Shown here in pieces: positions 2,120 to 19,764 of a stretch of DNA of 19,764 nucleotides. The position numbers and the translations under genes are program-made. Position 1 is the first letter of the stretch, and the number at the start of each line of letters is the position of its first letter. Location of the stretch: assembly GCA_021399345.1 (NCBI GenBank), contig JAAFKI010000132.1:1-19764 (forward strand), in the 5' to 3' direction. The notes below the pieces were generated by a model, which worked only from the letters and a program-made list of their open reading frames with translations, ran no database searches and had not been told where the DNA came from. The DNA comes from Candidatus Heimdallarchaeota archaeon. Its GTDB lineage: Archaea > Asgardarchaeota > Heimdallarchaeia > Heimdallarchaeales > Heimdallarchaeaceae.

Positions 2120-2129
2120 GATTTTTCCT

Positions 2130-3988: not shown

Positions 3989-4813
3989 TCATTTTTTATT
4001 GAAAAATTCTGATAATACTTTTCTCATTCTTTTCTCTACTTCTTCTCCAAAGAATTCTGCTTGTTTCCTCAAATATTCATCATCCGATTTCTGTTCCCAC
4101 TCCTCCTCATCTTCATCTATTCCTTCTTCAGATTCTTGTTCCATTTGCAGTTCTTTTTGAAATCTAATAGGTAACATGGTTGTATTTGGAAATTGATCTA
4201 TAATGTCAATGGTCTTTTCTTTGACAATAGAAGGACAATATTCCAATTCATAATTATACAGATTCTTAACTACCTCTTTTAGTTGTTCTTTGTCTAAAAT
4301 TGCACTTTCATTATTTTTAATTTTGATTACTTGAGAATCTATAAAACTCTTCAGACATGCTCTAAATCTGTAAGCAGAATCTCCTTTTTTTTCCTCACCC
4401 ATCTCCTCAAACCATTTTTTCAGACCCTTGATGCTCTCATTTTTCCCAATTTTTTCTTCCAATAGAATGTCAGTATAATTATAGGAATGAAGATTCATTC
4501 CTAAATCATGCATACATACCCCTTCACAGTCATCTCTATAATTGCAGAAAATAATACTACGTATTCTCCATCTTAGACTCTTAGGAATTTCCTTTCCATA
4601 GACCCATAATTTGGTTGACTTCCAACCACCTGTTAACTCATAGAGTTCTTCTAATTCTGGTGTGATAGCTTGAAAGATTACATACCAAAATCTGTCGTCC
4701 TCTTCATTATCACATTTTTCAATTATGCTATTTATATCAGGCATTGATGCACTTGAGCTTCTCCTATTTATTCTAATCATACACTTAGTTTCATCTAATT
4801 CTGAAATATTCAT
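3989..4813 (-). CDS. Hypothetical protein (Cys/His cluster, acidic C-terminal tract)
   Basis: 274 aa ORF with GAAGGAGG upstream of the ATG, CNYRDDCEGVCMH cluster and EEGIDEDEEE tract. Confidence 0.8.
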   Translation of the reverse strand: MNISELDETKCMIRINRRSSSASMPDINSIIEKCDNEEDDRFWYVIFQAITPELEELYELTGGWKSTKLWVYGKEIPKSLRWRIRSIIFCNYRDDCEGVCMHDLGMNLHSYNYTDILLEEKIGKNESIKGLKKWFEEMGEEKKGDSAYRFRACLKSFIDSQVIKIKNNESAILDKEQLKEVVKNLYNYELEYCPSIVKEKTIDIIDQFPNTTMLPIRFQKELQMEQESEEGIDEDEEEWEQKSDDEYLRKQAEFFGEEVEKRMRKVLSEFFNKK

Positions 4814-4830
4814 AAGATGTAACCTCCTTC

Positions 4831-4871
4831 AACATATTTATACCTTTTATCTATTTTTTGTTGTTTTTATA
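4831..4871. promoter_or_regulatory. Divergent promoter block (copy A)
   Basis: Minus strand AAAAGGTATAAATA (BRE+TATA) toward 4813. Plus strand TTTATA at 4866..4871, about 25 bp before ATG 4895. Similar to 16796..16850. Confidence 0.6.
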
Positions 4872-4894
4872 TTGAAACACCATTGTTACATAAC

Positions 4895-5116
4895 ATGAGT
4901 GAGTATTCTAATTACATGCTTGGTAAAGTTGATCTTGAGACAGAGAAAGCTTATCTAACTATCATTGAGAATTTCACAGATAAAGAAATCTGGGTACCTA
5001 AAGCTGTTGTAGGATCAGATAAGCGTATCAAAAAATGGTTCATAGAACAGAAAGAGAAGGAACTGAAGGGTTTCATGAGAAAGAAAAAACAATCTGATTT
5101 AGATCAATTCTTCTAA
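4895..5116 (+). CDS. Small hypothetical protein with ETEKAYL...IWVPK motif
   Basis: 73 aa from ATG 4895 (track starts at TTG 4883). TATA spacing favours 4895. A paralog lies at 16877..17048. Confidence 0.8.
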   Translation: MSEYSNYMLGKVDLETEKAYLTIIENFTDKEIWVPKAVVGSDKRIKKWFIEQKEKELKGFMRKKKQSDLDQFF

Positions 5117-5137
5117 AGTATATTTTTCAAAAAATGG

Positions 5138-5189
5138 TGAGACGGATGGAGTATGAACTGCTTATTTAATCACAGAAATTTCCGTCTCA
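5138..5189. other. Intergenic stem-loop (terminator or small RNA)
   Basis: Perfect 9-bp IR TGAGACGGA (5138..5146) / TCCGTCTCA (5181..5189) between convergent small genes. Confidence 0.55.
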
Positions 5190-5224
5190 TTATCATTATT
5201 GAAATTTTAGTATTTATACTTGAA

Positions 5225-5380
5225 TTATTTCTTATTCTCATCTTCTGATTCTCTTGAAGAATCATATGATGGATTGTTGGAATTCATTTGATTAGATCTA
5301 TTGTCCCTATCAGCTTTGTAAGCTGGATTGTTTGGATTTTTCGAATAAGATCTATTCGAACTCGATTTGCCTTTGGCCAT
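5225..5380 (-). CDS. 51 aa hydrophilic micro-protein with NPNNPAY / NRSNQMNSNNPSY internal repeat
   Basis: Hand translation MAKGKSSSNRSYSKNPNNPAYKADRDNRSNQMNSNNPSYDSSRESEDENKK*, with AAAGGAGG SD upstream. Below the ORF-track length cut-off. Confidence 0.8.
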   Translation of the reverse strand: MAKGKSSSNRSYSKNPNNPAYKADRDNRSNQMNSNNPSYDSSRESEDENKK

Positions 5381-5381
5381 C

Positions 5382-5447
5382 TGGGTTATACCTCCTTTAG
5401 ATTTTATTTTGTAAAAACAGTTTAGTTCTCAAAATCTGTATAACCCA
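5382..5447 (-). promoter_or_regulatory. Structured 5' leader with the SD bulged out of a stem
   Basis: 5382..5391 pairs with 5438..5447 (10 bp) and 5399..5405 pairs with 5431..5437 (7 bp). The intervening 5392..5398 is AAAGGAG on the minus strand. Confidence 0.55.
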
Positions 5448-5710
5448 TTATCGGTATTACAACTTTGTACCATGTATTTTAGCATCAGGGACATAGAGTA
5501 GTATACGATTCTACTTACCTATAAATTTTCCTCGACTGCTTCTACATAGAACAGAAGCACATTATAGTATATAATATTAACCAAAAACATGGAATACAAA
5601 ATTAACGATACAAGGATAATTGAAAAAACTCAACAAATTTACATGTTCTTGATGTGTTTTTATATTGTTTTTTAGTTGATTTTGTGAGATTAAAGTTTAG
5701 ATAGAACAAG

Positions 5711-8128
5711 ATGATAAACATGGATAGATTATTGGTATTTTTCTTAGTTATTACTATCTCAATCACTCTTTTGTTTTTTCTCTCATTTCCTTACATAAGA
5801 ATAAAAAACCATGAATTCTTCTTGCAAAGAAAGATCTTCTTCCCATTTTACAGATGCAGGATTTTTTTGCTTATTACTAACATAAACAATAACATCAAAC
5901 CAAACTCAGAGGAAATGGCAGAGATTCATGGTAGTTTTAGCACAATTATAGCTCTCAATGTTGAGAGGATCCAGTTAGTTATCTCTAAATATCAGTCAAA
6001 AACTAGTCTTTACATCTTTCTTACCAAAAATGGATTTTCTAAGAAGAAAATTTTCAACTATCTGGAAAAAGAATTGTTACTGGTAACGAATACTCTTTCT
6101 ACTAATTATGGAGGTCATGTGAATATCTTGAATTCAAAGCAATCCAGACTTCTTTTAAGGTTCTTAAAAAAGAAGAAAAACAAGGTTCCAATAGATTTCT
6201 CTTCTCTAGTAGATGCAGAAATAGATGTGATGGATATTTTGTACAGGACTATAGCAGTTGAAAGCTTTCCTGACATAAGTCTAGTAATGAGTGTTAAGAA
6301 AAAAGAAAGCACAAGTAATTATTTCACTGTGTATTTCTCAGCTCTTTCTGATAACTCCAAATCATTAAAGCGCTTTTTACATGCTACGAATACCTTCAAA
6401 AAGATGAAAACATCCTCAGCTCAAGATTCTGAACATGTTCATCTAGATGAATTACCAAAGTACTTTCACATTCCTTTAGATTACCAAGGAACTTCAACAA
6501 CTACTCAATCGAGAAGAAAACCTATCTTCCAACAAGATCAATCTCTTCTTCTTGGATATGAATATATTAACGAATTACTTGATGATGAAATCTCCATCAA
6601 CATTGGTGAGCTGCTCTACAATGTTGAAATCTACGGGATGATAGGTAGGGGGAAAACTAGCTTAGTTAGTAGTATCATAGAACATCTTATCCACAATAAT
6701 ATTCCTAGTTTAATATTTGATATCAAAGGAGAATATGCAACTACATTTACAACTGAATCAAATGTAGAGATTTTTACGATAGGTCCTCCCCACCCGATTT
6801 GTATCAATCTCTTTGATACCAGAGATGAAGATGATGTTAGAGGAACACTTCTGCTCATCGAAGAGATGATAGCTTCCTCTGATCAAAACTTTAGTCCTTC
6901 TATGAAGAATCTCTTTGAAACTGCTCTTTTTCTCACTCACAAAGAAGAAAAGAGAACGTTAGAAGTCTTTGCTGGGCATCTGATTACACTCGCAAAAAGA
7001 AACAAGCGAGTCACTACCATCCAGAATACCTTAGATGCGGTGTTAAACAGATTAAACTTCATCTTCAATCCCAGCAGTTTTGAGATATTAGGAGTCTCTC
7101 AAACAACTTTGAACTTCGATGTTATGGAACAAGGAAAGACCATTATTCTTGACCTTAGTCAATTCCAAAGAAGAGCAGCAAAACCGTCGGATATCTATCT
7201 AGTCTGCAACTTAATACTGAAATTATTCTACAAATTTGCATCATCTAAAGATCTAACTAACAAATTACGTTATGTTGTAGTTTTAGAAGAAGCAATCAAT
7301 ATCATCCCACACATTTATAGAACTCAGAGTTCAGCTTCTTTGATTACAGCTGAGAATAATATTTTATTGGGTAGGAGTTTAGGTATTGGTCATATCTTTT
7401 GTACTCAGATGTGGCATAGTGTGAGTAGAATAGTTCATGCTAACTCTTCCACCAAGATTGTTTTTCGTTCGTGTCAAGAGACGGAGAAGATAGCTAAAGC
7501 ACTCAATCTCCACGATTTTCATTTTGAGCGTCTCCAACAACTCCCTATTCGTCATTGTTTTGTTTGGAAGGATGGACAACATAAAGCTATAGAGATGGTT
7601 ACTAAGGATTTCAATAGAAAACCTCTCAATTACAATCACTATTTGTTATTTCTAAAAAGAAAATACTCCTATGCTGCTTATCCTCTTTTGTTCAACAGTT
7701 TCATTGATATGAGGACTTCCCTCTATGACAAACTAACTCAAAGGAAACATAATCATCAGAAGAAAGAACCAAAGAAAAAGAACATACAACAAACAGAAAG
7801 TAATAAACAGAATCCAAAGAATAGAAAGACTTCACCCAAAAAACAACCTTTTATTCAGGATGATGTCTGCAAAACTTTTTGCTCTTTAAGTAAAAACCAA
7901 GAAGAATGTTCCAAGATTAGAAAAGATGCTGAGATTGTGAGTTCTATTATGTTAAAAAGGTATTCAAAGTTTGAAATTGAACAGGCTATCCTTGGAGAAT
8001 TAGGGACCTCATTAGAAGATTTATTGAAACAGGTTTTAAAAGAGAAGAAACTAAACGAAGATGATAAAGTGGTTTATTGTGCTCAAAGAGAACTAACAAA
8101 TCAGCTGATGAAAATAAAACTAGCATGA
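5711..8128 (+). CDS. HerA/FtsK-superfamily (DUF87-type) P-loop ATPase with N-terminal membrane anchor
   Basis: Walker A GMIGRGKT, FDIKGEY motif, Walker B VVLEEA, GRSLGIG...TQ arginine-finger region, hydrophobic N-terminus and a C-terminal Cys cluster. Confidence 0.85.
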   Translation: MINMDRLLVFFLVITISITLLFFLSFPYIRIKNHEFFLQRKIFFPFYRCRIFLLITNINNNIKPNSEEMAEIHGSFSTIIALNVERIQLVISKYQSKTSLYIFLTKNGFSKKKIFNYLEKELLLVTNTLSTNYGGHVNILNSKQSRLLLRFLKKKKNKVPIDFSSLVDAEIDVMDILYRTIAVESFPDISLVMSVKKKESTSNYFTVYFSALSDNSKSLKRFLHATNTFKKMKTSSAQDSEHVHLDELPKYFHIPLDYQGTSTTTQSRRKPIFQQDQSLLLGYEYINELLDDEISINIGELLYNVEIYGMIGRGKTSLVSSIIEHLIHNNIPSLIFDIKGEYATTFTTESNVEIFTIGPPHPICINLFDTRDEDDVRGTLLLIEEMIASSDQNFSPSMKNLFETALFLTHKEEKRTLEVFAGHLITLAKRNKRVTTIQNTLDAVLNRLNFIFNPSSFEILGVSQTTLNFDVMEQGKTIILDLSQFQRRAAKPSDIYLVCNLILKLFYKFASSKDLTNKLRYVVVLEEAINIIPHIYRTQSSASLITAENNILLGRSLGIGHIFCTQMWHSVSRIVHANSSTKIVFRSCQETEKIAKALNLHDFHFERLQQLPIRHCFVWKDGQHKAIEMVTKDFNRKPLNYNHYLLFLKRKYSYAAYPLLFNSFIDMRTSLYDKLTQRKHNHQKKEPKKKNIQQTESNKQNPKNRKTSPKKQPFIQDDVCKTFCSLSKNQEECSKIRKDAEIVSSIMLKRYSKFEIEQAILGELGTSLEDLLKQVLKEKKLNEDDKVVYCAQRELTNQLMKIKLA

Positions 8129-8376
8129 ATGATGCTTAGATCTCAAAGAACTGATTATAGTTTTCCCTAAGATACTCTTTTACAAGATAACCACTTTGTA
8201 CACCTAGCTTATCATAGTTAAGAAAAGTTGGTAGGACAGAATAGGCAAGAAAAAATTCTCTCTTCGAATATAAATAAGTTTTGCAGAATATAAAAAGACG
8301 TGAAAATATATGTGTAATTCTAGTTTATAATTAGAGCTAAAATTTATATGAATTAACAATATCTAGATTAGTAATT

Positions 8377-9303
8377 ATGTCAAAAGACTTCTGTCAAAAC
8401 TGTGGAAAAGCGAAAGGGAATAGTACCCGCTGTGATTTTTGTGGATTTAGGGAAGAAAAACAACAACCCCAAATTAGTACAGATAAAAATGAGATCAGAA
8501 AAATAGGTGTTTGGTTATCTAAATGTCCAGTATGTAAATTCGGTCAAGTGAACAGATTTACAAAGAAGGTTTTCTTTAATCTCATCAAAAAGAAATTTCT
8601 GGAATGTGAGAGCTGTGGAGCAATTTTTTCTCAATTTGATTCTAAAAATTACAGATTGAAACATGTTATGAAAACCTCTAGTGAAGTGTGGAAATTATAT
8701 GGTGGAGTTGTACTCAGTGAAAGAGAATGGAAGAATATTGCAGTGGGAGGTATGTCCAATAGACTTCAAAGAAAAACTGATATTGAATTGTGGGAAAAGA
8801 AATTTTCCAATGGAGAAGTTTCTTTAAGAGATACAGTACTTGTTCCAGAAGATTTTTCTTCAGAAAACCCTCCTATAATCCTTAAGAAAAACGAAGAATT
8901 ACTTTTTGCATTTAGAAATATAACATTACAAGAAACAAGAATGGTCAGTAATCGAAAACGTATCAATTTAGGGACGATAGGAATTGTAAAGGTAGCAGGA
9001 TATGTTGGTGGATCCAAGCCTGAGATGAGGAAAATCGATGTAGGAGTATTATGCTTGACATCCAACCGTTTAGTTTTTGCTGGTCGGAATAAGAACGTCA
9101 TTTCACAACTTGATAAGATAATGAAAATAGATGAATATTATTCTGGGATTTCAATAGCTAGAGAAGGAAAGACCAAAACACAGTTCTATACGGGGGATGC
9201 TTTTAATAAAGATTTCAAAATTACAATTGAGGGAAGAGGATATGTCCAGAAACTAAGTCCTTCAAGAATTATACAACAAATTCAGAATTTAGTTCGATTC
9301 TAA
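8377..9303 (+). CDS. Double zinc-ribbon protein with C-terminal PH/GRAM-like domain
   Basis: CQNC..CDFC and CPVC..CESC pairs. C-terminal ILKKNEELL...DVGVLCLTSNRLVFAG resembles bacterial PH-like folds. Confidence 0.7.
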   Translation: MSKDFCQNCGKAKGNSTRCDFCGFREEKQQPQISTDKNEIRKIGVWLSKCPVCKFGQVNRFTKKVFFNLIKKKFLECESCGAIFSQFDSKNYRLKHVMKTSSEVWKLYGGVVLSEREWKNIAVGGMSNRLQRKTDIELWEKKFSNGEVSLRDTVLVPEDFSSENPPIILKKNEELLFAFRNITLQETRMVSNRKRINLGTIGIVKVAGYVGGSKPEMRKIDVGVLCLTSNRLVFAGRNKNVISQLDKIMKIDEYYSGISIAREGKTKTQFYTGDAFNKDFKITIEGRGYVQKLSPSRIIQQIQNLVRF

Positions 9304-9352
9304 TTGTTTTATAGTATTACCAATATATTGAATCATGTATAAATTTCTATAT

Positions 9353-9700
9353 CTATTTTGGTAAAAATGATCGTAGATGTTCTTCATTAATCTGTTCTTT
9401 ACAGATTGGGCAAGTACCTTTAACCTTAATCCATTCCTGAATATGATTCTTGTGAAAAACATGATTACAAGCTTCTACTTGAACTATTTTTTCTCCTGCA
9501 ACAATAATGTTCTTGCATATCTCACAATAAGGAGCTTTCTTTCCACAATTTAAACAAACAATAGGTCCTTCATCTTCAATTTCAGCAAGAACAGCTTCAC
9601 AATAAATACATTGGATCTTCTGTTTTTGTTCTTCGATTTTTTCAGTTCTTTCAGATTTAGCTTCTTCCTTAGTATCATCTGTTGTCTCAAAAGTTCTCAA
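9353..9700 (-). CDS. RING-H2 finger protein (E3 ubiquitin ligase-like) with preceding zinc ribbon
   Basis: CEIC...CNHVFHKNHIQEWIKVKGTCPIC RING pattern with the conserved W and P, plus upstream CIYC..CLNC. The TTG start is uncertain. Confidence 0.85.
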   Translation of the reverse strand: MRTFETTDDTKEEAKSERTEKIEEQKQKIQCIYCEAVLAEIEDEGPIVCLNCGKKAPYCEICKNIIVAGEKIVQVEACNHVFHKNHIQEWIKVKGTCPICKEQINEEHLRSFLPK

Positions 9701-9938
9701 ATGAACTGGTTTTCTTATTCACAAAGTAATATCTACTTGAATATGTATTAAACTGTTTGGACTAAATTTAACTTAAATTTGTAAATAGATACTTTCATCT
9801 TTGTATTTTTCAAGATTAATAAACTAAAATCTAAAATTTACCACATTTATAAACCAAACTTCTCATTATATCTACAGAACAGTCTATCTCTCTCTTATTC
9901 TCCCAACCCACTAAAAGAGAAGAAGCAAAAGAAAATAG

Positions 9939-10472
9939 GTGAACAAAGTGGGTTTAAACAATCACGTAAAAATAAAAGAAGAAGTACAAAACTATCAATC
10001 AGCCATAGAACATTTACAAGAAGAGTTAGCACGATTGAAAGAGATGAGGGAACAGCTGAACGAACCAATGAATATGACAATTGATTTATCCGAACCTAAG
10101 GATCTCATGGAAGCAGCGAGAAAATATGAACAGGAACTAAAAACTGGAGAGAAGGATCCAGTCATGTATATGTACAAAGACATGATGATTGAAATTGTCT
10201 TTGAAGCTCAAAGGGAACTAAGCAAGAAACTTCCTTTGTCTTTCCTTACCTCCATACGTGAGAAGGATAATTTGGAAGATTTACTCTCTTATGCTCTTGC
10301 CGAACTTACCATTCTTGAATCTAAACTCTATTCTCTCCATTTAGATGAATTTGATTGTTTGATTTGCGGTGAAAGGAATCTTGTTCTTGATGAGACCAGA
10401 GGAGAACAAACCTGCAAGAATTGTGGAACAGTTAGCAGAGAGAAGATGATAGAGGAAGAAATAATACATTAA
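9939..10472 (+). CDS. Coiled-coil protein with C-terminal TFIIB-type zinc ribbon
   Basis: N-terminal heptad-like IEHLQEELARLKEMREQL and C-terminal CLICGERNLVLDETRGEQTCKNCGTV. The start codon is uncertain. Confidence 0.75.
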   Translation: MNKVGLNNHVKIKEEVQNYQSAIEHLQEELARLKEMREQLNEPMNMTIDLSEPKDLMEAARKYEQELKTGEKDPVMYMYKDMMIEIVFEAQRELSKKLPLSFLTSIREKDNLEDLLSYALAELTILESKLYSLHLDEFDCLICGERNLVLDETRGEQTCKNCGTVSREKMIEEEIIH

Positions 10473-10478
10473 AACAAA

Positions 10479-11489
10479 GTGAATTGGATGAGTACAATGC
10501 AATTACCTCAAAGTGGCAAAGAAAGACAAGAAGCAATAGAAAAGCAACTAGCTCATTACTTGAATAGAGCTTTATTGATTTTCTCAGAAGAAGAGGTAGG
10601 AAAAAAACTATTTCTTAATATGTTAAGTGAAGTCTATGCATCTCATGAGAACCTAGCCCAGAAACACTCTACTAAGTGGGGAGTGATTGAGGAACCTGCA
10701 AAGTATATCAAGGGATTGAAAGTAGAATCATGGGAATACGAAGGGATAAAGAAGCACTATGACACTCTATTCGAGAAATATGATTCAGAAGATTTAGAGC
10801 ACTTGGTCAAACTGTGGTATGTCAAGTTTGAACTCTCAGAGATAAAAGAATTGGTTGAACACTACTATTCAGAAGATGAAGAGGAAAAAGAAATAGCTAC
10901 TGAGATATTGAAAGGATTGGGGGTATGGAGATTAGAAAGATTCCTATGGAAAGAGTTTGGTAGAATCTACAAACTACCACCAGTAGAGTATTTAGAGAAC
11001 TACTATCAATATTGTGCTTCAACAAGGGAGGATAATCCATTAGAAGAGAAGCATTTCATGGCTAAGATTGAGGAAATTCAAGGAAAGTTGTTTGATTGCT
11101 TGGTTTACGATTTGATAGCTGTGGAAGGAGAATTGGGTATAGCAAGAATGGAGAAAATGGCAAAACTAGCTAAAGATTCCTCTACAGTAGAAGAAAAGAT
11201 AACTATACTGAAAAAACTTCTCTATCTCTACCCTTACCATAGAAATTATACACGTAATCCTATTTATGAGGAGAATCCAGGATATTGGATCTATTCAGAA
11301 GTGATAGAAACTTTGGAAGAGATAGGAGGAGAAGAAGCAGAAAAGGTTTTGCAGGAGATCGTTCAAGGAGATTTTCATCATGAAGAAACAAAAGAAGAAG
11401 CAATTAAACAACTTGAGAATATAAGAGAAATACATTATCTTACTAATCTACCTACTTTAGAGGATTTCGTAGAAAAAACAGATACTTAA
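10479..11489 (+). CDS. Acidic helical hypothetical protein with a C-terminal HEAT-like repeat
   Basis: 336 aa, 6 bp after the previous stop. EVIETLEEIGGEEAEKVLQEIV...TKEEAIKQL is HEAT/PBS-like. The stop overlaps the convergent gene's stop (TTAA 11486..11489). Confidence 0.7.
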   Translation: MNWMSTMQLPQSGKERQEAIEKQLAHYLNRALLIFSEEEVGKKLFLNMLSEVYASHENLAQKHSTKWGVIEEPAKYIKGLKVESWEYEGIKKHYDTLFEKYDSEDLEHLVKLWYVKFELSEIKELVEHYYSEDEEEKEIATEILKGLGVWRLERFLWKEFGRIYKLPPVEYLENYYQYCASTREDNPLEEKHFMAKIEEIQGKLFDCLVYDLIAVEGELGIARMEKMAKLAKDSSTVEEKITILKKLLYLYPYHRNYTRNPIYEENPGYWIYSEVIETLEEIGGEEAEKVLQEIVQGDFHHEETKEEAIKQLENIREIHYLTNLPTLEDFVEKTDT

Positions 11490-11713
11490 CTTTCCTTCCA
11501 GAGATCCTTTGTAAATCCATTATATTTTCTCAAAGTATCCAAGATGAATCTATTGACATTAGGGTTTTCTTCTTCAGAGAGAGCATTCCAGAGTGCTTTG
11601 AAAGCTCTCTTATCCTTTATACTGACTATCGCTTTTTCTCTTACTTCCCAATTATCATCTTTCAGCTGTTCTAGCAATTCTTCAAAAGTAGGTTCCTTCT
11701 CTTCTTTACTCAT
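11486..11713 (-). CDS. Short HEAT (PBS lyase-like) repeat protein
   Basis: MSKEEKEPTFEELLEQLKDDNWEVREKAIVSIKDKRAFKAL. Start moved to ATG 11713, 1 bp after the upstream gene's stop, matching the M(G/S)KEE starts of its neighbours. Confidence 0.75.
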   Translation of the reverse strand: MSKEEKEPTFEELLEQLKDDNWEVREKAIVSIKDKRAFKALWNALSEEENPNVNRFILDTLRKYNGFTKDLWKES

Positions 11714-11714
11714 A

Positions 11715-13028
11715 TCAGCCATCCTCATTCGTTTCTGGTTTTTCAATTGATATATTATATAGTTCTAGCAGTTTCTGTTCAATGTAATCTCTTTCCCAGT
11801 CTTGTGGGTATTTCTCTATTGCTTTTTGGACTGGTTTCACTACTTTGTTAAAGCCAGAATCTAGTAACAGATTTACGATTTGGAAACTACTATCAGAGCC
11901 TAAATTTTCGATATTATTATCAATGAATTTTTCAGTTTCAATTGGATCAATTCTCTTAGCAATCTCAAACATTTCTTTTGTATGAGAAGAGTATGGTTCC
12001 TCGAAATTTACTTCAATTGAACCATCATAAACTCCTTCTAGTGTTTCAAGAATTAGTTTCACAAGAGAATTTTCCTTATAAAGCATGAGAGATTCAGCTG
12101 CCATTACTCTGAGAAGACCAAAGCCATTATGTAGATATTCTGTTATGAAAGGGATAGAACTTTCATGTGCTAGCTTTCCTAAAGCTTTGAGTATTACTTC
12201 GATATAGAATGGATTTGAATCCTCACTACATGCTTGTAGACAATCATTAAGGATATCAACAGCCCTTTCATCTGAAGTCTCTCCTAATTTCTCAATTAGT
12301 TTATAATCGACGTATAAATCTTCATTAATGTACTCCTGTGCTTCAACAATTAGTTCTTCAATTTCCTCAGAAGTAAAATCCCAACTTTGGCTTTGCACTG
12401 ACCACTTTATCATTTCAAAATTGCTAAGAATATCATTCATCTCTGAAAGACTACAATGCTGATGCAAAGCATCAAGAGCCAATCTATCACCTGAATCTTC
12501 TAAAGCTTTTATTATCTCAGCTGTTATTTCTTTAGGTATGTTCATATTATTGAATTTCTCTAATGCTTTAACGAGTGCATTTATTGCTTCGTGTGTTTTT
12601 ATTCTTCCCAAAGCTTGTATTGCTTGAAATGTAATTTGCTTATCATCTTCAACGTATCCAAGCAAAATCCATCCCAAGAATTCGGCATTTCTTGGATCGC
12701 CTATTTTATCAAGAGCTTTAACTACGGCAGATTTAACTCCAAAATGCTCATCAGAATCACCTGCATCCACAGCATAGAAAACATTGGTAAGGAATGCTGA
12801 ATCAGTTCGTTCTGTAAGTTTAGGTATAGCATCAAGAGTAATTTTCTTGAAGAACCTATTGATTTTTTCGTCTCCTTGAGGAACAGATTGCACCAATTCG
12901 ATTATATTTTGTGTCCAATCCAGCTTCTGTCTCCTAAAATAATCCTCATAGTATTCGAGAATTCTTCTAGGACTTTGGTTATAAAGTGACTCTAACTCAA
13001 ATCTAAGTTTTTCCTCTTCTTTCCCCAT
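11715..13028 (-). CDS. HEAT repeat (PBS lyase-like) protein
   Basis: Repeats VKSAVVKALDKIGDPR, QAIQALGRIKTHEAINAL, IIKALEDSGDRLALDAL, ILKALGKLAHESSIPFI. Probable ATG at 13028 (MGKEEEK). Confidence 0.85.
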   Translation of the reverse strand: MGKEEEKLRFELESLYNQSPRRILEYYEDYFRRQKLDWTQNIIELVQSVPQGDEKINRFFKKITLDAIPKLTERTDSAFLTNVFYAVDAGDSDEHFGVKSAVVKALDKIGDPRNAEFLGWILLGYVEDDKQITFQAIQALGRIKTHEAINALVKALEKFNNMNIPKEITAEIIKALEDSGDRLALDALHQHCSLSEMNDILSNFEMIKWSVQSQSWDFTSEEIEELIVEAQEYINEDLYVDYKLIEKLGETSDERAVDILNDCLQACSEDSNPFYIEVILKALGKLAHESSIPFITEYLHNGFGLLRVMAAESLMLYKENSLVKLILETLEGVYDGSIEVNFEEPYSSHTKEMFEIAKRIDPIETEKFIDNNIENLGSDSSFQIVNLLLDSGFNKVVKPVQKAIEKYPQDWERDYIEQKLLELYNISIEKPETNEDG

Positions 13029-13043
13029 AGCAGTCAACTTTCT
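13014..13043 (-). repeat. 30-bp direct repeat spanning leader and start of HEAT gene 2
   Basis: AGAAAGTTGACTGCTATGGGGAAAGAAGAG, 28/30 identical to 13822..13851. Confidence 0.85.
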
Positions 13044-13836
13044 ATGTGTTTTTATTTTCGAAATCCTGTAGAATTTCCTTAATTTTATGCTGAAATATTG
13101 AATCTGTTTCTGACGATAATAGTTTCCTTAATGGTTCGATTGATTCCATTGCATTTAATTCTCCCAAGATACTGGCTGAACACCATCTCACTCTTTTGTC
13201 ATCATCTTTCAATGTTGAAATCAAGGGCTCAGCAAACTTCTTACACAGTATAGTTTGATCAAAAATATTCGGATTATTTAGCCTTCTAACAGACATAACC
13301 GCTTCCCATCTTACATCAGCATTTGGGTCATTCATTGCACTAATAATGGGGTCAAATACTCGTTCATCTTTCATTTTGCTTATTGCTTGAAGTATAGACA
13401 TTCTAAGTATACTACTCTCATCTTTCAAGGTTTGAATGATTTGAACCAAAAATGGTTTTCCTAACTTACTCACTGCGAAAATAATACATCTTCTCTTGTC
13501 ATCATCACTGTCTCTTAATGCGTTGAGTAGTTGTTCAATAGCTGGTCTTCTAAGCTTCATTAATGCCCATGCAGCAGTCTTGCAAACATAATTGTCATCC
13601 AAAAGAGCAACTAAAGGTTGTGTAGCTTGTACATCTCCTATCTCTCCTAAAGCTTTTGCTACTTTAGTTCTGACCCACCACATCTCATTTTCTAAGGCAG
13701 TGATTAAAGGTTCAACAGCTCTTGAATCTTGAATTTTCCCTAATCTCATTGCTGCAAGTCTTACCTCATTGTAATCATAGTCATTCAATTTCTCTAGCAA
13801 TTCTTCTAAGCAAGCTTCTTGCTCTTCTTTCCCCAT
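13042..13836 (-). CDS. HEAT repeat (PBS lyase-like) protein
   Basis: VRLAAMRLGKIQDSRAVEPLITAL, VRTKVAKALGEIGDVQATQPLVALL, VRWCSASILGEL. Probable ATG at 13836 (MGKEEQE), with a TATA about 25 bp upstream. Confidence 0.9.
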   Translation of the reverse strand: MGKEEQEACLEELLEKLNDYDYNEVRLAAMRLGKIQDSRAVEPLITALENEMWWVRTKVAKALGEIGDVQATQPLVALLDDNYVCKTAAWALMKLRRPAIEQLLNALRDSDDDKRRCIIFAVSKLGKPFLVQIIQTLKDESSILRMSILQAISKMKDERVFDPIISAMNDPNADVRWEAVMSVRRLNNPNIFDQTILCKKFAEPLISTLKDDDKRVRWCSASILGELNAMESIEPLRKLLSSETDSIFQHKIKEILQDFENKNT

Positions 13837-13851
13837 AACAATCAACTTTCT
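13822..13851 (-). repeat. 30-bp direct repeat spanning leader and start of HEAT gene 1
   Basis: AGAAAGTTGATTGTTATGGGGAAAGAAGAG, 28/30 identical to 13014..13043. Confidence 0.85.
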
Positions 13852-13860
13852 CAGAAATGG

Positions 13861-13905
13861 TTTATAACTCTTCCTTACTTTGGTTGTCTTTTTATAGCTC
13901 TTTCT
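13861..13905 (-). promoter_or_regulatory. Tandem BRE/TATA-like boxes 30 bp apart
   Basis: AGAAAGAGCTATAAA (13891..13905) and AGGAAGAGTTATAAA (13861..13875), 13/15 identical. Confidence 0.6.
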
Positions 13906-13925
13906 AGTAGGTTGTTCACCATATC

Positions 13926-13986
13926 GGTTGAAGGGCAAGTGGGTTCTCCCACAAACACTTTCAACTTTTAGTTCTACCCTTCAACC
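13926..13986. other. Intergenic nested inverted repeat
   Basis: GGTTGAAGGG (13926..13935) / CCCTTCAACC (13977..13986) enclosing a GTGGG-TTCT-CCCAC hairpin (13939..13952). Confidence 0.55.
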
Positions 13987-14092
13987 ATGGGCACTCCTTT
14001 ATAGTGAAAAAGATTTTCTGCTAATGGATAGGTGAGTAAGTTTCTGATTCTTTCCTTGTTTGTGGTATAAGAAAGAACAGCTGGTATGGGAC

Positions 14093-16783
14093 TCACCAAT
14101 CATTAAATCTCTTCTTAATTTTAATGTGAAATATGACAATAACACTTGTAGAAAGGATTGAAAATGATATCCATGAATATTCCTCTACAAGTAGAACTGT
14201 TGTAAAAACATATGTCTTATTCGTCCAATAGCCTAAGTTATCTTGAGCATTAATCTGAAGAATATGTTCTGAGTGTTCAGAAGGTATCAAGAAATCGAAA
14301 GGACTTGTTTTAGTTGTGAAGTTATTTGAATCCCATCTATAAAGAACTTGAGCAATTCCTGAAAAGTCTATTATATCAAAACTAATGATTGTTCCATCAG
14401 GTTGTTCAGTGTTATTTAATATCGTTAGTAGATTAACTGTGGGTGCTGTAGTATCATATACTTCTACTATAACTTGAGAAGTTGCAAGATTTAAGTATTG
14501 ATCATAAGCTTCTATCTCATAGATAAAAGTTCCTGCAGATAAACCATCAAGAACAACAATTATTGGTGTCCCATTTATCCATGTTCCTGTAATCTCTTCT
14601 ATGCCGTTTCGTTTTAGTGTATAATTTCCAGGGTATTTATCGTAAAGATTCCATGTTATAATATTACCTGTCTCTCCCTCGTTAAACTGTATATTTCCTG
14701 AATTAGAAATCATTGGTGATATTTGATCGAAAATATATTCTAATATTAGTACATCATCATCAATTACTGAAGTGATGAAAAGATGGTCTTGTTTGATATA
14801 ATATCCACCATTAATCATGGCGTGTATTAAATTATCATCGATGCTAGTAATTATTCCATTCCCTGTTGAATTCAAACAGATAACATAATCAGTACCAAAC
14901 ATACCAACTATATATAAATTATTTAATTCATCAAGAAATACAATTTCAGCTGTCTCATCTGTTGTAGAATTACCTAGATATGTGCTGAATATTAATCCAT
15001 TCCCTGTTGAGTTTAGTTTTGTTATCACTGCATCCTTCCCTCCTTGAAAAGTTTGATAAGGATTTAAGGTAGGATAATCAATATAATCAGTATACCCCGT
15101 AATATAACAGTTTCCTGCAGAATCTAGTGCTAATCCTACTGAATCATAATTATCACATTCATCCCCAGTTCCACCGATACATGTACTGAAAATTAAATTC
15201 GTTCCATTTGTGTCTATTTTTGCAACAAACAGATCAAAACCACCTTGAGGTGCTTGATACTCATTCACAACTGGGAAATTTGAAGAGTCTGTCACACCAC
15301 TAATATAGATGTTATTGTAAGCATCAAGCACTAGTTCAGATGGTGTATCCCAATGATCTCCACCCAGATAAGTGCAAAAAATACAATTCCCATCACTTTC
15401 AAATTTAGCAATAACACAATCCATTACTCCTGGATCACCTTTAACACTTTGAATAGCATTTTTAACTGGAAAAGATTGTGAAGCAGTTTGACCGTAAAAA
15501 TATGCGTTTCCATTTTCATCTACTTTGAAATTCCTAAATTCATCACTGCTACCACTGCTCCCCAAATAAGTGCTGTATAATAATCCATTTCCAGTTGAAT
15601 TCAAACCAGTAATGAAGATGTCTTTGTATAGTTGGTTATTTTGATATTGATTGAACACAGGAAAATTATCAGAATCTGTTTCTCCACTTATATAGACATT
15701 CCCGTTAGTATCAACACCAATGCCATATCCAATATCAAAATCATTTCCTCCAAGATATGTACTAAATAGGATACTAGTACCATCTGGCTCTAATTTTGTT
15801 ACGAAAGCATCATAATCACCTTGCCAAATAGGTTCATAAGCATTAACAATTGGGAAATTTGGGTAAGAGTTAGTACCTCCAGTTATATAGATGAAACCAT
15901 CTGAATCAACAAAAATACCTTTTCCAGCATCAACTTGATCTCCTCCAAAAGTGTATTCATTTATTTTAATGATAGGATCTATTGTCAATTCCTTTTTAGA
16001 ATCATATTGATTTATTCCAAATCCAAAAGAATTAGATAAACCTCTAGATTTGATGAATTGTGTTTCTACCTCTCTTAGATTATCTTGGAAAACTTTCAAT
16101 CCATTTTCATGATAAACACATTGTCCACTTTTTGCTGAGTATCCGTATATTTCCCCTTCTAAAATTTCCAATTGTATTGAATCACTCATTTGTATTAATA
16201 TATCATTTGGGTCCGCTTCAGGATGAACAATAAATTCGTATTTTAAGCCTTCTTTAGTTAAGATGTATCGTAGATCTATTCCTGAGTATATATCAAAATA
16301 CCAAATTTCCTCATATTCAAAAACATTGGTTATAACAGAACCACTGATGAAATAGTTACTATATCCAGATAATGCTCTTCTACCTACTGGTTCAACATTA
16401 TTTGAACCCGAAAACATAATGGAGATGAGCTCTGTCTGGTAACTAGTTTTATCTACGTAACTTATACTGATTTCTGAAGATTTGAAGAAGAAAACATTTT
16501 CTGGTGATTCCATATAGAATTTTACAGCAGAATTTCCAAATTGACCCTTGTTTTCCTTGAATCCTTTTTGTCTTTCTTTGTTTTGTGAATTCTCAATAAT
16601 GGTCTTAAACTCAGGTTGTGTCCATTCAGTATTGATTTCAAAATTTCTTAAGTGAGAGATTGACATATCATCTCCATTAGTGTTTTTTTGCGTTATTAAT
16701 GAAGCTGGAATTGATATTGTTAATAATATGATGAAAAGTGTAAGTGATTTCAGATTTAGGTGTTTTCCCATGTGACCCACCAT
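14093..16783 (-). CDS. Cell-surface SBBP beta-propeller repeat protein with Ig-like domains and C-terminal TM anchor
   Basis: Signal-like N-terminus; F.ENKGQ and YSGIDLRY...GLKYEFIVHPEADP..I domain; repeated D.F(V/I).K...G..L.FSTYLGG...D..GN.YI.G.T.S.NFP; Ig-like stretches; C-terminal hydrophobic helix followed by KIKKR. Confidence 0.9.
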   Translation of the reverse strand: MVGHMGKHLNLKSLTLFIILLTISIPASLITQKNTNGDDMSISHLRNFEINTEWTQPEFKTIIENSQNKERQKGFKENKGQFGNSAVKFYMESPENVFFFKSSEISISYVDKTSYQTELISIMFSGSNNVEPVGRRALSGYSNYFISGSVITNVFEYEEIWYFDIYSGIDLRYILTKEGLKYEFIVHPEADPNDILIQMSDSIQLEILEGEIYGYSAKSGQCVYHENGLKVFQDNLREVETQFIKSRGLSNSFGFGINQYDSKKELTIDPIIKINEYTFGGDQVDAGKGIFVDSDGFIYITGGTNSYPNFPIVNAYEPIWQGDYDAFVTKLEPDGTSILFSTYLGGNDFDIGYGIGVDTNGNVYISGETDSDNFPVFNQYQNNQLYKDIFITGLNSTGNGLLYSTYLGSSGSSDEFRNFKVDENGNAYFYGQTASQSFPVKNAIQSVKGDPGVMDCVIAKFESDGNCIFCTYLGGDHWDTPSELVLDAYNNIYISGVTDSSNFPVVNEYQAPQGGFDLFVAKIDTNGTNLIFSTCIGGTGDECDNYDSVGLALDSAGNCYITGYTDYIDYPTLNPYQTFQGGKDAVITKLNSTGNGLIFSTYLGNSTTDETAEIVFLDELNNLYIVGMFGTDYVICLNSTGNGIITSIDDNLIHAMINGGYYIKQDHLFITSVIDDDVLILEYIFDQISPMISNSGNIQFNEGETGNIITWNLYDKYPGNYTLKRNGIEEITGTWINGTPIIVVLDGLSAGTFIYEIEAYDQYLNLATSQVIVEVYDTTAPTVNLLTILNNTEQPDGTIISFDIIDFSGIAQVLYRWDSNNFTTKTSPFDFLIPSEHSEHILQINAQDNLGYWTNKTYVFTTVLLVEEYSWISFSILSTSVIVIFHIKIKKRFNDW

Positions 16784-16795
16784 TAAATATATCAG

Positions 16796-16850
16796 AACAT
16801 ATTTTAACCTTTTCTGTTATTTTGTCACTTTTTTTCTTGTTGTTTTAATA
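16796..16850. promoter_or_regulatory. Divergent promoter block (copy B)
   Basis: AACATATTTTAACCTTTT...TTGTTGTTTTAATA resembles AACATATTTATACCTTTT...TTGTTGTTTTTATA at 4831..4871. Confidence 0.5.
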
Positions 16851-16867
16851 CTTCTAACCCTCTCTGT

Positions 16868-17155
16868 TTACTGAAAGTGTTTATGGTTCTCGAAGATATT
16901 CCTCCTAAAGATAGTTCTTTTTCTGATTATTCTATCGATTACCTTCTTGCTGAATCTGCCACCTCTTTCTATGCTACTATTTACGACCTTACTGATGAAC
17001 CTATCTGGATCCCTAATTCTGTCGTTGATGATTTTTGGAGAATCAAACACTGCTTTCATAGCTTTTGCTTTGAAGTCTTGATTCTTTCCAGAATTGTCTG
17101 CCTTGCTTTGTATTTTTCTAGCAGTTTCTTTGGTCATTTTAGTTGATTTTCCCAT
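16868..17155 (-). CDS. Small basic hydrophilic protein (MTKETARKIQSKAD...NQDFKAKA, seed-maturation/SMP-like by recall) with read-through tail
   Basis: The first ~36 aa resemble, from memory, a widespread small protein pattern MT.E.A.RIQS.AD..G.NQDFKARA. The remainder is antisense to the + ORF. Confidence 0.55.
   Translation of the reverse strand: MGKSTKMTKETARKIQSKADNSGKNQDFKAKAMKAVFDSPKIINDRIRDPDRFISKVVNSSIERGGRFSKKVIDRIIRKRTIFRRNIFENHKHFQ
16877..17146 (+). CDS. Paralog of the 4895..5116 protein; tail reads antisense through the neighbouring micro-ORF (possibly pseudogenised)
   Basis: Ungapped 44-aa alignment with 14 identities (TDEPIWIPNSVVDDFWRIK vs TDKEIWVPKAVVGSDKRIK). Similarity stops at about 17048. 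Confidence 0.6.
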   Translation: MFMVLEDIPPKDSSFSDYSIDYLLAESATSFYATIYDLTDEPIWIPNSVVDDFWRIKHCFHSFCFEVLILSRIVCLALYFSSSFFGHFS

Positions 17156-17171
17156 TTAAATCACTTTATTC

Positions 17172-17311
17172 ATTGATTTGGCAAAAAAGGACTATGTTCC
17201 AAATCAATTAACCGTCTTGTAATTCAATATTAAGCTCTCCCGGAAATATCCGCCTTGATATTCAGAATTCCAGTAATTCCTTACATATTGAACATACTTT
17301 TTTTTTGCCAA
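17172..17311 (-). ncRNA. Putative structured leader or small RNA upstream of the 17155 ORF
   Basis: IRs 17178..17188/17301..17311, 17193..17199/17290..17296, 17223..17230/17285..17292 and competing 17172..17181/17199..17208. A minus-strand TTTATAA lies at 17332..17338. Confidence 0.45.
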
Positions 17312-17460
17312 GTATTATTGATTTTTCTCCCTTATAAATCTAGCAAAAACAAATTATCTGAAAATAAAATACTCATCATATCTAAAATTTTTCAGTGATC
17401 AGAGACATCTTGTCATTAAATTTCCTTGGGGCTTATATGGTCAAATTTGGTTTTAACGTA

Positions 17461-17676
17461 GATGAGTGAGAATTACTGCATCTCCACCCCCCGTGGACTG
17501 TTAATTTCTCACTTATCACTAAAAGGAAAAAGGAGTGAAGAAAAGAGGTTTAGTAGTTCTTCTGCAATCTTATTCGAATTCCTGATGCAATTATACACAT
17601 AGTACTAATCAGTGGTTCCTCTACTGGTTTTAGAAATAAGTCTAGAAGAGGAACCATTGGTTTTCGACAATTCGAA
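17461..17676 (+). other. Long hairpins upstream of tnpB (candidate left end or leader RNA)
   Basis: 17461..17475/17502..17517 with inner TCCAC/GTGGA; 17607..17622/17647..17662 (16 bp, both mismatches G-U on the + strand); 17573..17580/17669..17676. Confidence 0.6.
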
Positions 17677-17723
17677 AAAGGTTCAGTGTTTATCAAACAC
17701 TTACAATTTTAGGAGTTGAACTC

Positions 17724-19259
17724 ATGAAAATTGAAGAACTAAATAAACAAGAAGAACTACTAATTGAAAACAATAAACATGGAAAACATGGAGAAGTCAA
17801 AAGCACTACTCAAATACCATTAGTTACATTCTATGAGACTGTTTCTCTGAGAATCAAGACGGAATTAATGACTATTAGAGAGTGTGAAAGGTTGCGAAGA
17901 ATAACCGAACGAGATACCAGAATCATCAGAGACTACCTGCGAATCATCTATCACAACGAGGAGAAAATTCTACGAAAAAATGGTAAAGTAAGTGCATCCC
18001 TATTGGATAAATTGACTTTAACAACTTCAAAGAAGACGAATCATAAGTTACGGACATCTGTACCTCATGACTTAAAGAAGCGTTATCCTCGTTGCTCATT
18101 TGATGAATTACAGGAATGCAGAGACAAAGCTATCTGGACTTATGAAAGCTGGAAAACACAACAAAATGTTTCCAAGAATGAACTGAGTAGACCTTCGTTC
18201 AAGAAGAAAACTCCCAGACCATTGTTCAAAGGAACACAAGGCAGAGGTACGTTTCAAGTTCATCATGAACCTGTTAATACCGATGCTAAACTTTGGCTAG
18301 AGTTAAGAGATTCTCTTGATACGAAACGTTCTAGCAATAGAACCCATAATCGACTATGGCTACCTTTAGCTTATTCACCCTACCACGAGAAGAGGTTAAA
18401 ACTAGAAAACATCAAAATGATGGAACTAGTTCATAAATCCAAAGAACAACAGTGGTGGGCACATTTCACCCTCCAGTATTCTATCCCTCAATACCAATCC
18501 ATCCTTCCACCTGCAGTGTTAGGAGTAGATCTGGGAATAAAGAAAACAGCTGTTGCAGTGTTACTTAACCCTACAGGCAGAGTAATCATGGATGAAATAC
18601 GCTTTATCGTTGATAAGGAGAGACAGTCGAAAATATGGCAAATAAGTAGACAGATCAAGGAAACTCAGAGGAAGTTGAACAAAAGTCTCAACAATGGGCA
18701 ACATACAGAACAGCTTAATGCTACGCTCTTCAGTCTACGTAGAAGACGACGTTCTGTTACTGAACAGGAATTGGGGTATGCTGTTAACCAATTGGTTGAT
18801 TTCATCCTTCAGTTGAAGAAGCGATATAATTTGTTTGTATCTGTTGGCTATCCAAAGAACATTCGGAAACGTCATCGTCGAGGTAGTGGGAACAAATCTT
18901 TACGTAAGAAAGTGCATAAGTGGTGTTTTCGCTACTTTATCACTAGACTGCAATATCAGTTAACTAAGTATGGATTTGAACCCCATCGAGTGGTAGCTGT
19001 TAATGAAAGTTGGACCTCTAAGCGATGTTCTAGGTGTAATTCGCTTAACACTACCCGTACAGGACAAGGACAGTTTAACTGCCACCAATGCAACTACGAA
19101 CTAGATGCAGATCTGAACGGAGCAAAGAATATAGGGAAGAGGTTGATTCGCTATGCGTTGAAACCAAAATTCAGTGGTATAAGAGACACACTAACAGAGG
19201 ACTACCATCCGCTACGACACTACAACTGTTTCCAGCCCTTAGGTCAATGGCTTAAGTGA
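17724..19259 (+). CDS. tnpB: TnpB RNA-guided endonuclease with rearranged (Fanzor-like) RuvC-II
   Basis: RuvC-I LGVDLG (D269); RuvC-II position reads VSVGYP (G375) with alternative Glu in VNESWTS (E428); Zn finger CSRC..CHQC; RuvC-III DADLNGAKNI (D463); AGGAG SD at 17711. Confidence 0.92.
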   Translation: MKIEELNKQEELLIENNKHGKHGEVKSTTQIPLVTFYETVSLRIKTELMTIRECERLRRITERDTRIIRDYLRIIYHNEEKILRKNGKVSASLLDKLTLTTSKKTNHKLRTSVPHDLKKRYPRCSFDELQECRDKAIWTYESWKTQQNVSKNELSRPSFKKKTPRPLFKGTQGRGTFQVHHEPVNTDAKLWLELRDSLDTKRSSNRTHNRLWLPLAYSPYHEKRLKLENIKMMELVHKSKEQQWWAHFTLQYSIPQYQSILPPAVLGVDLGIKKTAVAVLLNPTGRVIMDEIRFIVDKERQSKIWQISRQIKETQRKLNKSLNNGQHTEQLNATLFSLRRRRRSVTEQELGYAVNQLVDFILQLKKRYNLFVSVGYPKNIRKRHRRGSGNKSLRKKVHKWCFRYFITRLQYQLTKYGFEPHRVVAVNESWTSKRCSRCNSLNTTRTGQGQFNCHQCNYELDADLNGAKNIGKRLIRYALKPKFSGIRDTLTEDYHPLRHYNCFQPLGQWLK

Positions 19260-19537
19260 TTCTGCAAAGAATACATCGTTTTACTAAAATCGATGTGCGA
19301 GGTCAAGAATCTGTCATCTCACTAGTTTGACTGATTCGGTAATGAGTGCCCTTTATCGAGAGATGAATCCTTTGAGCAGATTTACAGCAATGTAATTTTG
19401 TTCCAGAGACTGGTACTGCTACACTATGAACTGATTATCTTTTCATTTTGTACAGTTTTACCACTATGCCAACCCTTTGTTACGCCAGTTTAGGAGGAGT
19501 CTTGGAAGGATCTTCACGAAAACTATAACAGGTTTTT
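19258..19537 (+). ncRNA. Putative omega-RNA (scaffold to TTCAC at 19517; guide ~19518..19537)
   Basis: Stems 19273..19278/19291..19296, 19308..19313/19377..19382, 19314..19320/19360..19366 and 19401..19411/19498..19507 (one bulge). ATCCTT 19367..19372 is complementary to AAGGAT 19506..19511. The region ends in TTCAC like IS200/IS605 right ends. Confidence 0.55.
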
Positions 19538-19550
19538 GGGTAGAAAATAA

Positions 19551-19626
19551 CTCATATGTCAACCATGACCCTAAATCTTTCAAATCTGACTTCCCTTCCT
19601 TTTCTTTTTTTTCTTCTGTATTTCAT
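19551..19626 (-). pseudogene. Decayed 5' fragment of an aldo/keto reductase gene
   Basis: ATG 19626 gives MKYRR, then an A-rich insertion with frameshift, then EGKSDLK-D-LGSWLTY, versus MKYRKVGKSGLKVSELSLGSWLTF at 353. Upstream AAGTGATATT vs AGGTGATAAT. Confidence 0.7.
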
Positions 19627-19764
19627 AATATCACTTATCTATTTGTTACTAAGAAGAGTGCAGATTGACACAATAAAAAGTATGTGGATTTTCAATTTTT
19701 TTGACTTACAGTCGGAAGAAAAAACTCTTAATGCTGAATAGTTATTTTTCAATCGGTGTTAAAA

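Follow-up and report, generated by a model that had tools for sequence, protein, structure and literature searches.

What does a TnpB gene that lacks any transposase, and whose catalytic glutamate appears to have moved, do in the genome of a Heimdallarchaeial archaeon? The question is raised by contig JAAFKI010000132.1 of a Candidatus Heimdallarchaeota archaeon (NCBI GenBank assembly GCA_021399345.1), of which positions 1 to 19,764 were analyzed; this whole stretch of 19,764 nucleotides (nt) is called the window below. Near its right end, the window encodes a compact TnpB with Gly at the place of the canonical catalytic Glu and an alternative Glu (Ealt) farther along the chain. Taken as a whole, the locus is, with good confidence, best explained as an intact Asgard TnpB nuclease of the Ealt/D-Phi-G class with an omegaRNA at its 3' end and a likely role in the homing or retention of genomic islands. 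The class of rearrangement is already described, and the island context together with the empty-site comparisons is the part worth following.

The tnpB open reading frame (ORF; 17724-19259, + strand) is real, intact, and Asgard. An earlier note, made from the letters of the DNA alone, had delimited this ORF correctly, and its translation is a stop-free protein of 511 amino acids (aa), in which the translation, family models, and an AlphaFold2 model distinguish a WED/REC lobe, a split RuvC domain, a zinc finger, and a C-terminal tail. The protein scored 103.7 bits against the NCBIfam model guided_TnpB (NF040570, cut-off 100) and 60.4 bits against the Pfam family Cas12f1-like_TNB (PF07282, cut-off 26.3), and the PADLOC and PHROGs searches returned generic HerA, Cas12f, and transposase matches only. 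From motif reading and family alignments, we located the RuvC-I Asp, D269, in GVDLG (codon 18528-18530, +), a D-L-G and not a D-P-G motif, and the RuvC-III Asp, D463, in DADLNG (codon 19110-19112, +; D-A-D-L-N-G-A with the following residue). The canonical catalytic Glu position of TnpB is taken by G375 in FVSVGYP (codon 18846-18848, +), and the alternative catalytic Glu is E428 in VNESWTS (codon 19005-19007, +), six residues before C435; both placings also draw on the secondary structure of the model. The zinc finger (19026-19091, +), identified by its motif, the family alignment, and the PF07282 match, consists of CxxC at 435-438 and CxxC at 453-456 (C435, C438, C453, and C456) and is positioned between RuvC-II and RuvC-III. 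All of these motifs lie exactly where the earlier note had put them, and it was right as well about the length of the protein, the 53-residue shift of the Glu (375 to 428), and the intactness of the Asp residues in RuvC-I and RuvC-III and of the zinc finger.

The two layouts of the active site were compared across the family. A word-indexed search gave about 90 full-length relatives, and the family alignment took 61 sequences, in which D269, E428, and D463 are invariant and G375 is conserved in at least 90%. An exhaustive profile search of 1.84 billion representatives found 104 proteins at E <=1e-30, and the 93 of at least 340 aa were aligned. The Ealt layout, with no Glu in the column of residue 375 (mostly Gly) and Glu in the column of residue 428, was present in 79 of these aligned representatives, and the canonical layout, in which residue 375 is Glu and residue 428 is Pro or Ala, in 12; both Glu residues or neither occurred in 0 of 91 representatives, the exceptions being two truncated rows beyond those 91. 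This mutual exclusion of Glu at 375 and Glu at 428 is an evolutionary signature of catalytic-residue substitution. In AsCas12f, a canonical relative, the Pro of I-D-P-Q-Y-T-S aligns with E428.

In the AlphaFold2 model of the window TnpB (pLDDT 86, pTM 0.77), G375 ends a predicted strand at 369-376 (beta-4 of the RNase H fold, by our own assignment), E428 follows immediately after a predicted strand at 423-427 (beta-5, also by our own assignment), and D463 stands at the beginning of a helix (462-479). The modeled strand placing of G375 and E428 matches the published relocation from beta-4 to beta-5 (PMC10691335), and the predicted catalytic triad, from alignment and model together, is D269-E428-D463. 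The protein further agrees with the pattern D{P}G x(120-160) E x6 CxxC x(12-18) CxxC x(4-8) D given in PMC10711439. Enzymes with the alternative Glu are active, ApmFNuc being dead as the E467A mutant and TvTnpB cleaving (PMC10530073), and the dN/dS of the window tnpB against five relatives was ~0.2. A structural search returned OsCas12f (Z 19.3, 381 residues aligned, root-mean-square deviation [rmsd] 5.5) and ISDra2 TnpB (Z 16.7, 352 residues aligned, rmsd 5.9), and these Cas12f and TnpB matches span residues 34-486. Cas12f (OsCas12f 9nzs/9nzq, AsCas12f 7wju/8j12) and ISDra2 TnpB (8h1j, 8exa) are the top structural and sequence-profile matches of the family and share with it the miniature architecture of WED, REC, RuvC, and zinc finger, but they have the canonical beta-4 Glu, and Cas12f goes with CRISPR arrays and ISDra2 TnpB with a Y1 TnpA.

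Rearranged prokaryotic TnpBs, archaeal and Asgard-linked groups included, were described in 2023 (PMC10691335, PMC10530073). Altae-Tran et al. (2023) reported RuvC-II rearrangements in two major clades and in eight large branches, and found some of the rearranged branches to be archaea-specific and two groups to be Asgard-linked (PMC10691335). Jiang et al. (2023) found the alternative Glu in a prokaryotic "TnpB2" group, in which the TvTnpB of Thermoplasma volcanium is active, and showed that the alternative Glu of a Fanzor is essential (PMC10530073). The window TnpB resembles the members of this class (TnpB2, RIIr, or Ealt/D-Phi-G TnpBs) in the replacement of the canonical Glu by Gly, the alternative Glu six residues before the zinc finger, the D-Phi-G motif of RuvC-I, the N/D-A-D-x-N motif of RuvC-III, its compactness, and the guide RNA at its 3' end. 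Unlike TvTnpB-type proteins, it is ~100 aa longer and Asgard-restricted; unlike the TnpB2/RIIr comparison group, its family is without an IS605 TnpA and is tied to a HerA-like ATPase via a conserved 310-nt spacer.

The Asgard origin suggested by the earlier note was borne out, the genome being Heimdallarchaeial and the related loci belonging to Heimdallarchaeota/Heimdallarchaeaceae. The 11 related loci among species-representative genomes all come from Candidatus Heimdallarchaeota or Promethearchaeati, the source names of the close protein relatives are Heimdallarchaeaceae or Heimdallarchaeum, and the farther relatives that have a name are all Asgard (Thor-, Odin-, and Loki-type and Heimdall). 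In a FastTree phylogeny of 91 sequences, the window protein groups with four others in a clade (support 100), and every named member of it has a Heimdall label; this five-member clade is nested in a 38-member clade (support 100) in which the named members are all Asgard and every member has the Ealt layout. The case that the earlier note had named as counting against it, a recent transfer from among ordinary bacterial rearranged TnpBs, did not occur, as the clade surrounding the window protein is all-Asgard in its named members. On this phylogeny, the window TnpB is no recent bacterial import and is placed in an Asgard-restricted clade within the known Ealt/D-Phi-G class ("TnpB2", "RIIr").

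The conserved unit extends beyond the ORF on both sides. Similarity among 13 loci runs from ~17404 to exactly 19555, ending after ...AATAACTCAT, and the flanks beyond are unrelated. The structured noncoding region 3' of the ORF (19260-19555, +; 296 nt, with the sharp end ...AATAACTCAT) is taken as the omegaRNA scaffold from the 13-locus alignment and its covariation. Its consensus fold has 62 pairs, with 95.7% of cells paired versus 32-48% when the partners were slid, and compensatory changes were found in 19 of the 62 pairs versus 1-7 with slid partners; none of 500 shuffles attained the observed values. The final six bases pair with an internal AUGAGU, and a search of 17300-19764 against Rfam gave no family match. 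These patterns point to the 296-nt region as the expected omegaRNA scaffold, with the guide from 19556 on, and the 5' end of the omegaRNA may lie inside the tnpB ORF. Three sediment studies yielded RNA-library contigs of related strains (90-95% alike) that span the ORF together with its 3' region, although contigs do not tell the strand or the RNA nature of their source. One of them crosses the right end and stops at 19599, a weak pointer, since contig ends need not be transcript ends.

The flanking DNA past the right end (19556-19589, +) is read as the guide (first 16-20 nt or more), on the grounds that it is unrelated between loci and that it is identical to an empty site in two relatives. 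Empty sites for four copies of a sister genome exist in this genome, and for two of the sister-genome copies the DNA after ...CTCAT is identical to this genome's empty site at 19 of 19 and 36 of 37 positions, which is the classic guide-to-flank relation in those two copies. The guide is followed by a pyrimidine tract (19590-19617, +) with T8 at 19605-19612, which, from its recurrence across loci, is likely the archaeal terminator of the omegaRNA-guide transcript: a run of at least 7 T within 15-110 nt past the right end was found in 10 of 12 loci versus 3% of random 100-nt genome windows. In the window, the tract stands in place of the purines of the former coding start of an aldo/keto reductase paralogue. 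In L008, a sister-strain copy, the tract is an insertion of 20 nt compared with the empty site, and in L013 it is a 28-nt stretch before host sequence resumes, both beginning 19 nt past the right end. From these comparisons, we infer that the oligo-T tract is a terminator evolving in place. At one locus (L010:4843-5024), the omegaRNA 3' end recurs 182 nt downstream of the first as a second copy of 39 nt, preceded by a T tract; this fragment resembles what an older insertion at a host ...AACTCAT site would leave behind, and its reading as an array was rejected, as it is a single case.

On the 5' side, the family is linked to a HerA/FtsK-type ATPase. The earlier note's description of the TnpB as solo holds insofar as the conserved unit neither contains nor adjoins a transposase gene, but the gene is not isolated, because its relatives are linked to a HerA-like ATPase gene. 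In the window, that gene (5711-8128, +; 805 aa, DUF87, with an N-terminal hydrophobic segment) was recognized by family matches, including weak CedD-like and HerA matches, and by homologues beside TnpB units. Such a homologue lies immediately 5' of the TnpB unit in most assessable copies, and the remaining copies keep a C-terminal fragment. The HerA-like gene is 9.3 kb upstream of the window TnpB unit, and the separation in the window and one relative is put at 7-9 kb, with other genes between. The family has 3-7 copies per genome and a conserved ~90-aa C-terminal domain with four Cys (C-x3-C ... C ... C), and this domain persists as a fragment beside TnpB where the rest of the gene is lost. 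A predicted complex of TnpB and the HerA-like C-terminal domain scored 0.00, below the mark, which counts neither for nor against binding.

Locus comparison also delimits a conserved 5' spacer or leader (17393-17723, +), which includes a relic of the last codons of the HerA-like gene at 17393-17416. The spacer (~310 nt) contains a TATA-like TTATAT at 17433-17438, an AGGAG ahead of the ATG, and hairpins that are conserved and show some covariation, the longest at 17608-17662. At four loci (L007, L010, L012, and L013), the HerA-like ORF ends in ...LMxKDLS-stop, with the stop within the first conserved bases GTCATAA/AATTTCC. Since the conserved block opens with the end of the HerA ORF and the spacer, its apparent left end is no transposon end.

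The extent of the strain-variable unit was seen in comparisons of occupied and empty sites. A paralogue on contig C115 (L061) ends a 6,052-bp insertion (31066-37117) that is missing in three sister genomes, with flanks 91-96% identical, and a fourth genome retains a 31-nt footprint of the left edge of this island. Besides TnpB and the omegaRNA, the island carries HEPN_AbiV, a small membrane protein, a metallophosphoesterase, and a HerA-like piece that is an intact 120-aa ORF consisting of the C-terminal domain only; no recombinase was found in it. The left junctions of the sister-genome islands lie on other contigs, and those insertions exceed the flanks compared. Host identity stops exactly at the 5' edge of the target and is followed by a ~70-80% identical copy of the target region. 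In one island, the left copy encodes an N-terminus similar to that of the interrupted minus-strand gene (MSLKFDSFRQPV vs MSLRFDSYRSPV). At the left junctions G013:C132 (L058) and G013:C84 (L060), the ~70-80% identical target copy includes the start codon of the interrupted host gene, so that the host gene keeps an N-terminus and a promoter-like region. Judged by these junctions, the islands carry with them a diverged version of the gene start that they displace. Target-site duplication was rejected as the source of the flanking repeats, the left and right copies being ~70-80% identical to each other versus 91-96% for host flanks between strains.

From these observations, we tentatively propose a more specific account, which we regard as possible and short of probable: the Heimdallarchaeia TnpB and its omegaRNA would provide homing or retention from the right end of islands that have no transposase and measure ~6 kb or more, carry a HerA/FtsK-type ATPase and other cargo, defence-like genes among it, and sit in or just before the 5' ends of host genes. 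A pre-diverged left copy would keep the host gene intact, the orphaned original start would serve as the guide, and the downstream pyrimidine/oligo-T tract would evolve in place, probably as a terminator. On the general reading given at the outset, in which we have good confidence, the window TnpB most likely is an active RNA-guided double-strand DNA endonuclease that works through D269, E428, and D463. Transcription would cross the right end at 19555 into the flank, which becomes the guide, and would probably stop at the oligo-T tract 35-60 nt past the right end. The ribonucleoprotein would then cut island-free alleles matched by the guide, and recombination with the occupied copy would restore or spread the island. 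The homing logic is the one proposed for TnpB in IS200/IS605 elements, here extended to a larger element without a transposase; nuclease activity, the target-adjacent motif (TAM), the homing role, and an enzyme that first inserts the islands are elements of this reading that we infer.

Several observations sit poorly with this reading. The guide from 19556 onward has no second full match elsewhere in its own genome. The empty site of the window copy was not found by a flank search in 30 relatives, which gave weak or paralogous matches only, and the left boundary of the island of the window copy was not found either. Across five sites, the TAM candidates differ (..CCAT, ..TCAT, ..CTTT, and ..CCAA). 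In C115 and L013, the unit has a near-copy of the target next to it, and in L006 the first bases past the right end stand inverted when compared with the empty site; these features of C115, L013, and L006 depart from a simple identity of guide and native flank. Further, this genome has three family copies (100, 82, and 47% identical) and no extra solo ends, and with so few copies, 47-82% identical, recent movement of the window copy is unsupported.

The most familiar setting for such a gene is an insertion sequence, and the unit could be read as a non-autonomous IS200/IS605-type (IS1341-like) element of ~2.1 kb (17404-19555) moved by a Y1 TnpA in trans. TnpB with a sharply bounded omegaRNA at the right end follows the classic layout, hairpins occur at both ends of the unit, and two relatives show a simple insertion in which the guide equals the flank. 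We nevertheless consider this reading quite improbable, because neither this genome nor any of the 25 examined from the genus (72-92% complete) gave a match to Y1 TnpA (PF01797), with control genomes positive, the apparent left end consists of the HerA ORF end and an intergenic spacer, the strain-variable units are several kb long with cargo included, and near-identical copies are missing. The TnpB family itself is present in 13 of the 25 genomes, with 1-6 diverged copies each, nearly all intact. Three serine recombinase/resolvase genes occur in this genome, none beside the window family and one adjoining a 645-aa TnpB type. TnpB zinc-ribbon matches number 21 in this genome and fall into at least three types. 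A 410-450-aa type accounts for ~14 copies, many of which lie at contig ends, and the 645-aa type for four, one of which lies beside a broken serine recombinase on contig C89. Membership in the published aCas1-associated Asgard TnpB transposons (Cas1H-Asgard-1/-2; PMC10691335) is very improbable as well. Those elements are likewise Asgard-linked and have a variable stretch past the conserved 3' RNA region, and the clade of the window TnpB is Asgard-restricted, with distant members from Thorarchaeota, Odinarchaeota, and Lokiarchaeia-type records besides the Heimdall-labelled ones. In a Thorarchaeota relative (L041:2105-7750, -), a divergent ORF of 1,881 aa stands head to head with the TnpB gene, but this neighbour has no Pfam or NCBIfam match, so that Cas1 is unconfirmed even there. 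Unlike the aCas1-associated TnpBs, the window family neighbours a HerA/FtsK-type ATPase, Cas1 (PF01867) has no match in this genome (88.6% complete) and none in the window, and the GTTCACTCA motif reported after the hypervariable region was not found downstream of the window unit; four one-mismatch matches to GTTCACTCA elsewhere in the window are at chance level.

An immobilized and exapted TnpB, working with the HerA-like ATPase as an RNA-guided regulator or defence nuclease for the host or the island and not in homing, would agree with the low copy number, with copies that are old, diverged, and under purifying selection, with the lasting linkage to the ATPase, and with defence-like cargo such as HEPN_AbiV in the C115 island; several exapted TnpB groups are on record (PMC10691335). 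Most of those groups are inactivated (PMC10691335), however, whereas the triad is retained here, the guide is locus-specific and equals the local flank without a fixed target, and the distribution is patchy, with presence in 13 of 25 genus genomes and presence or absence differing between close strains; we rate exaptation as unlikely. Least probable of all is that the window TnpB is part of the lineage from which the eukaryotic Fanzors arose, or its nearest relative among prokaryotes, and was inherited through the Asgard ancestor of eukaryotes. The earlier note had called the protein Fanzor-type and valued it for Fanzor origins; the Ealt layout is real, but a Fanzor-specific link is not evident, and the value for Fanzor origins was not borne out. 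Fanzors (Fanzor2 of Acanthamoeba polyphaga mimivirus, 9b0l, and Fanzor1) do share the overall fold and the alternative Glu six residues upstream of the zinc finger, the host is Heimdallarchaeial, and the mimivirus Fanzor2 is a clear structural match (Z 14.8). Yet Cas12f and ISDra2 TnpB rank above it, Fanzor1 is absent from the top 50 structural matches, and in a search of the Protein Data Bank (PDB) the family profile matched Cas12f chains (E 6e-21) and ISDra2 TnpB (0.006) but no Fanzor chain up to E = 10. Yoon et al. (2023) defined the fingerprint of Fanzors and pro-Fanzors as RuvC-I DPG with Ealt and placed Ealt/D-Phi-G TnpBs in a separate clade (PMC10711439); the residue after the RuvC-I Asp is hydrophobic in the window TnpB (D-L-G) and in all 79 Ealt relatives and Pro in none. 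Fanzors differ further in their eukaryotic or viral hosts and their association with IS607 or eukaryotic transposons, and pro-Fanzors occur as IS607 elements of cyanobacteria that carry a serine recombinase, and no such recombinase is linked to the window family. By RuvC-I motif, profile search, and structural rank, the window TnpB shows no evident special tie to Fanzors, and because of the D-Phi-G motif, this ranking, and the 2023 precedents for the rearrangement, it adds little on Fanzor origins.

Near the right edge of the window, the right end of the unit cuts an aldo/keto reductase paralogue, leaving a decayed 5' end of ~24 codons (19556-19628, -; recognized by comparison with relatives); the promoter-like region of this paralogue lies beyond it to the right. 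The reductase gene of the relatives has an intact orthologue in this genome, on contig C169. Two reductase 5' ends at the contig ends were considered as attachment sites of a 19-kb island, and these boundaries were dropped because the left reductase copy is only 77-78% identical to the relatives' gene throughout and because of the intact orthologue on C169. A 24-nt motif, AATAAAAAGTATGTGGATTTTCAA (19672-19695 in the window), lies upstream of reductase genes. Four other genomes of the genus share it at 100% identity in surroundings of only ~70%, and it is a possible regulatory site. In the stretch that separates the HerA-like gene from TnpB, the window encodes a small RING-finger protein (9353-9700, -; zf-RING_2, E 3.8e-9), with RING paralogues on four other contigs, and a protein ending in a TFIIB-type zinc ribbon (9939-10472, +). 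Farther left lies a gene for a 571-aa protein (2130-3845, -) with approximately six tandem "homing endonuclease associated repeat" units (PF18780) and a possible nuclease-like C-terminus, which adjoins a DUF4145 protein (1282-2103).

For the origin of Fanzors, this Asgard family with a widespread Ealt/D-Phi-G layout provides no evidence of vertical descent from the archaeal ancestor of eukaryotes. The earlier note's idea of a compact editor stands to the extent that the protein is a candidate, though one among many: it is one more compact Ealt TnpB, and since published Ealt enzymes are without collateral activity, it is possibly useful. The stronger lead is the context, that is, an Asgard-specific TnpB lineage under purifying selection without any transposase and tied to a HerA-type ATPase. 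Strain-variable islands with guides that match the empty alleles of sister strains make the homing proposed for TnpB testable outside IS200/IS605 elements. If the more specific account of the islands is true, TnpB would be put to a new use there, one that resembles a gene-targeting integrative element more than an insertion sequence.

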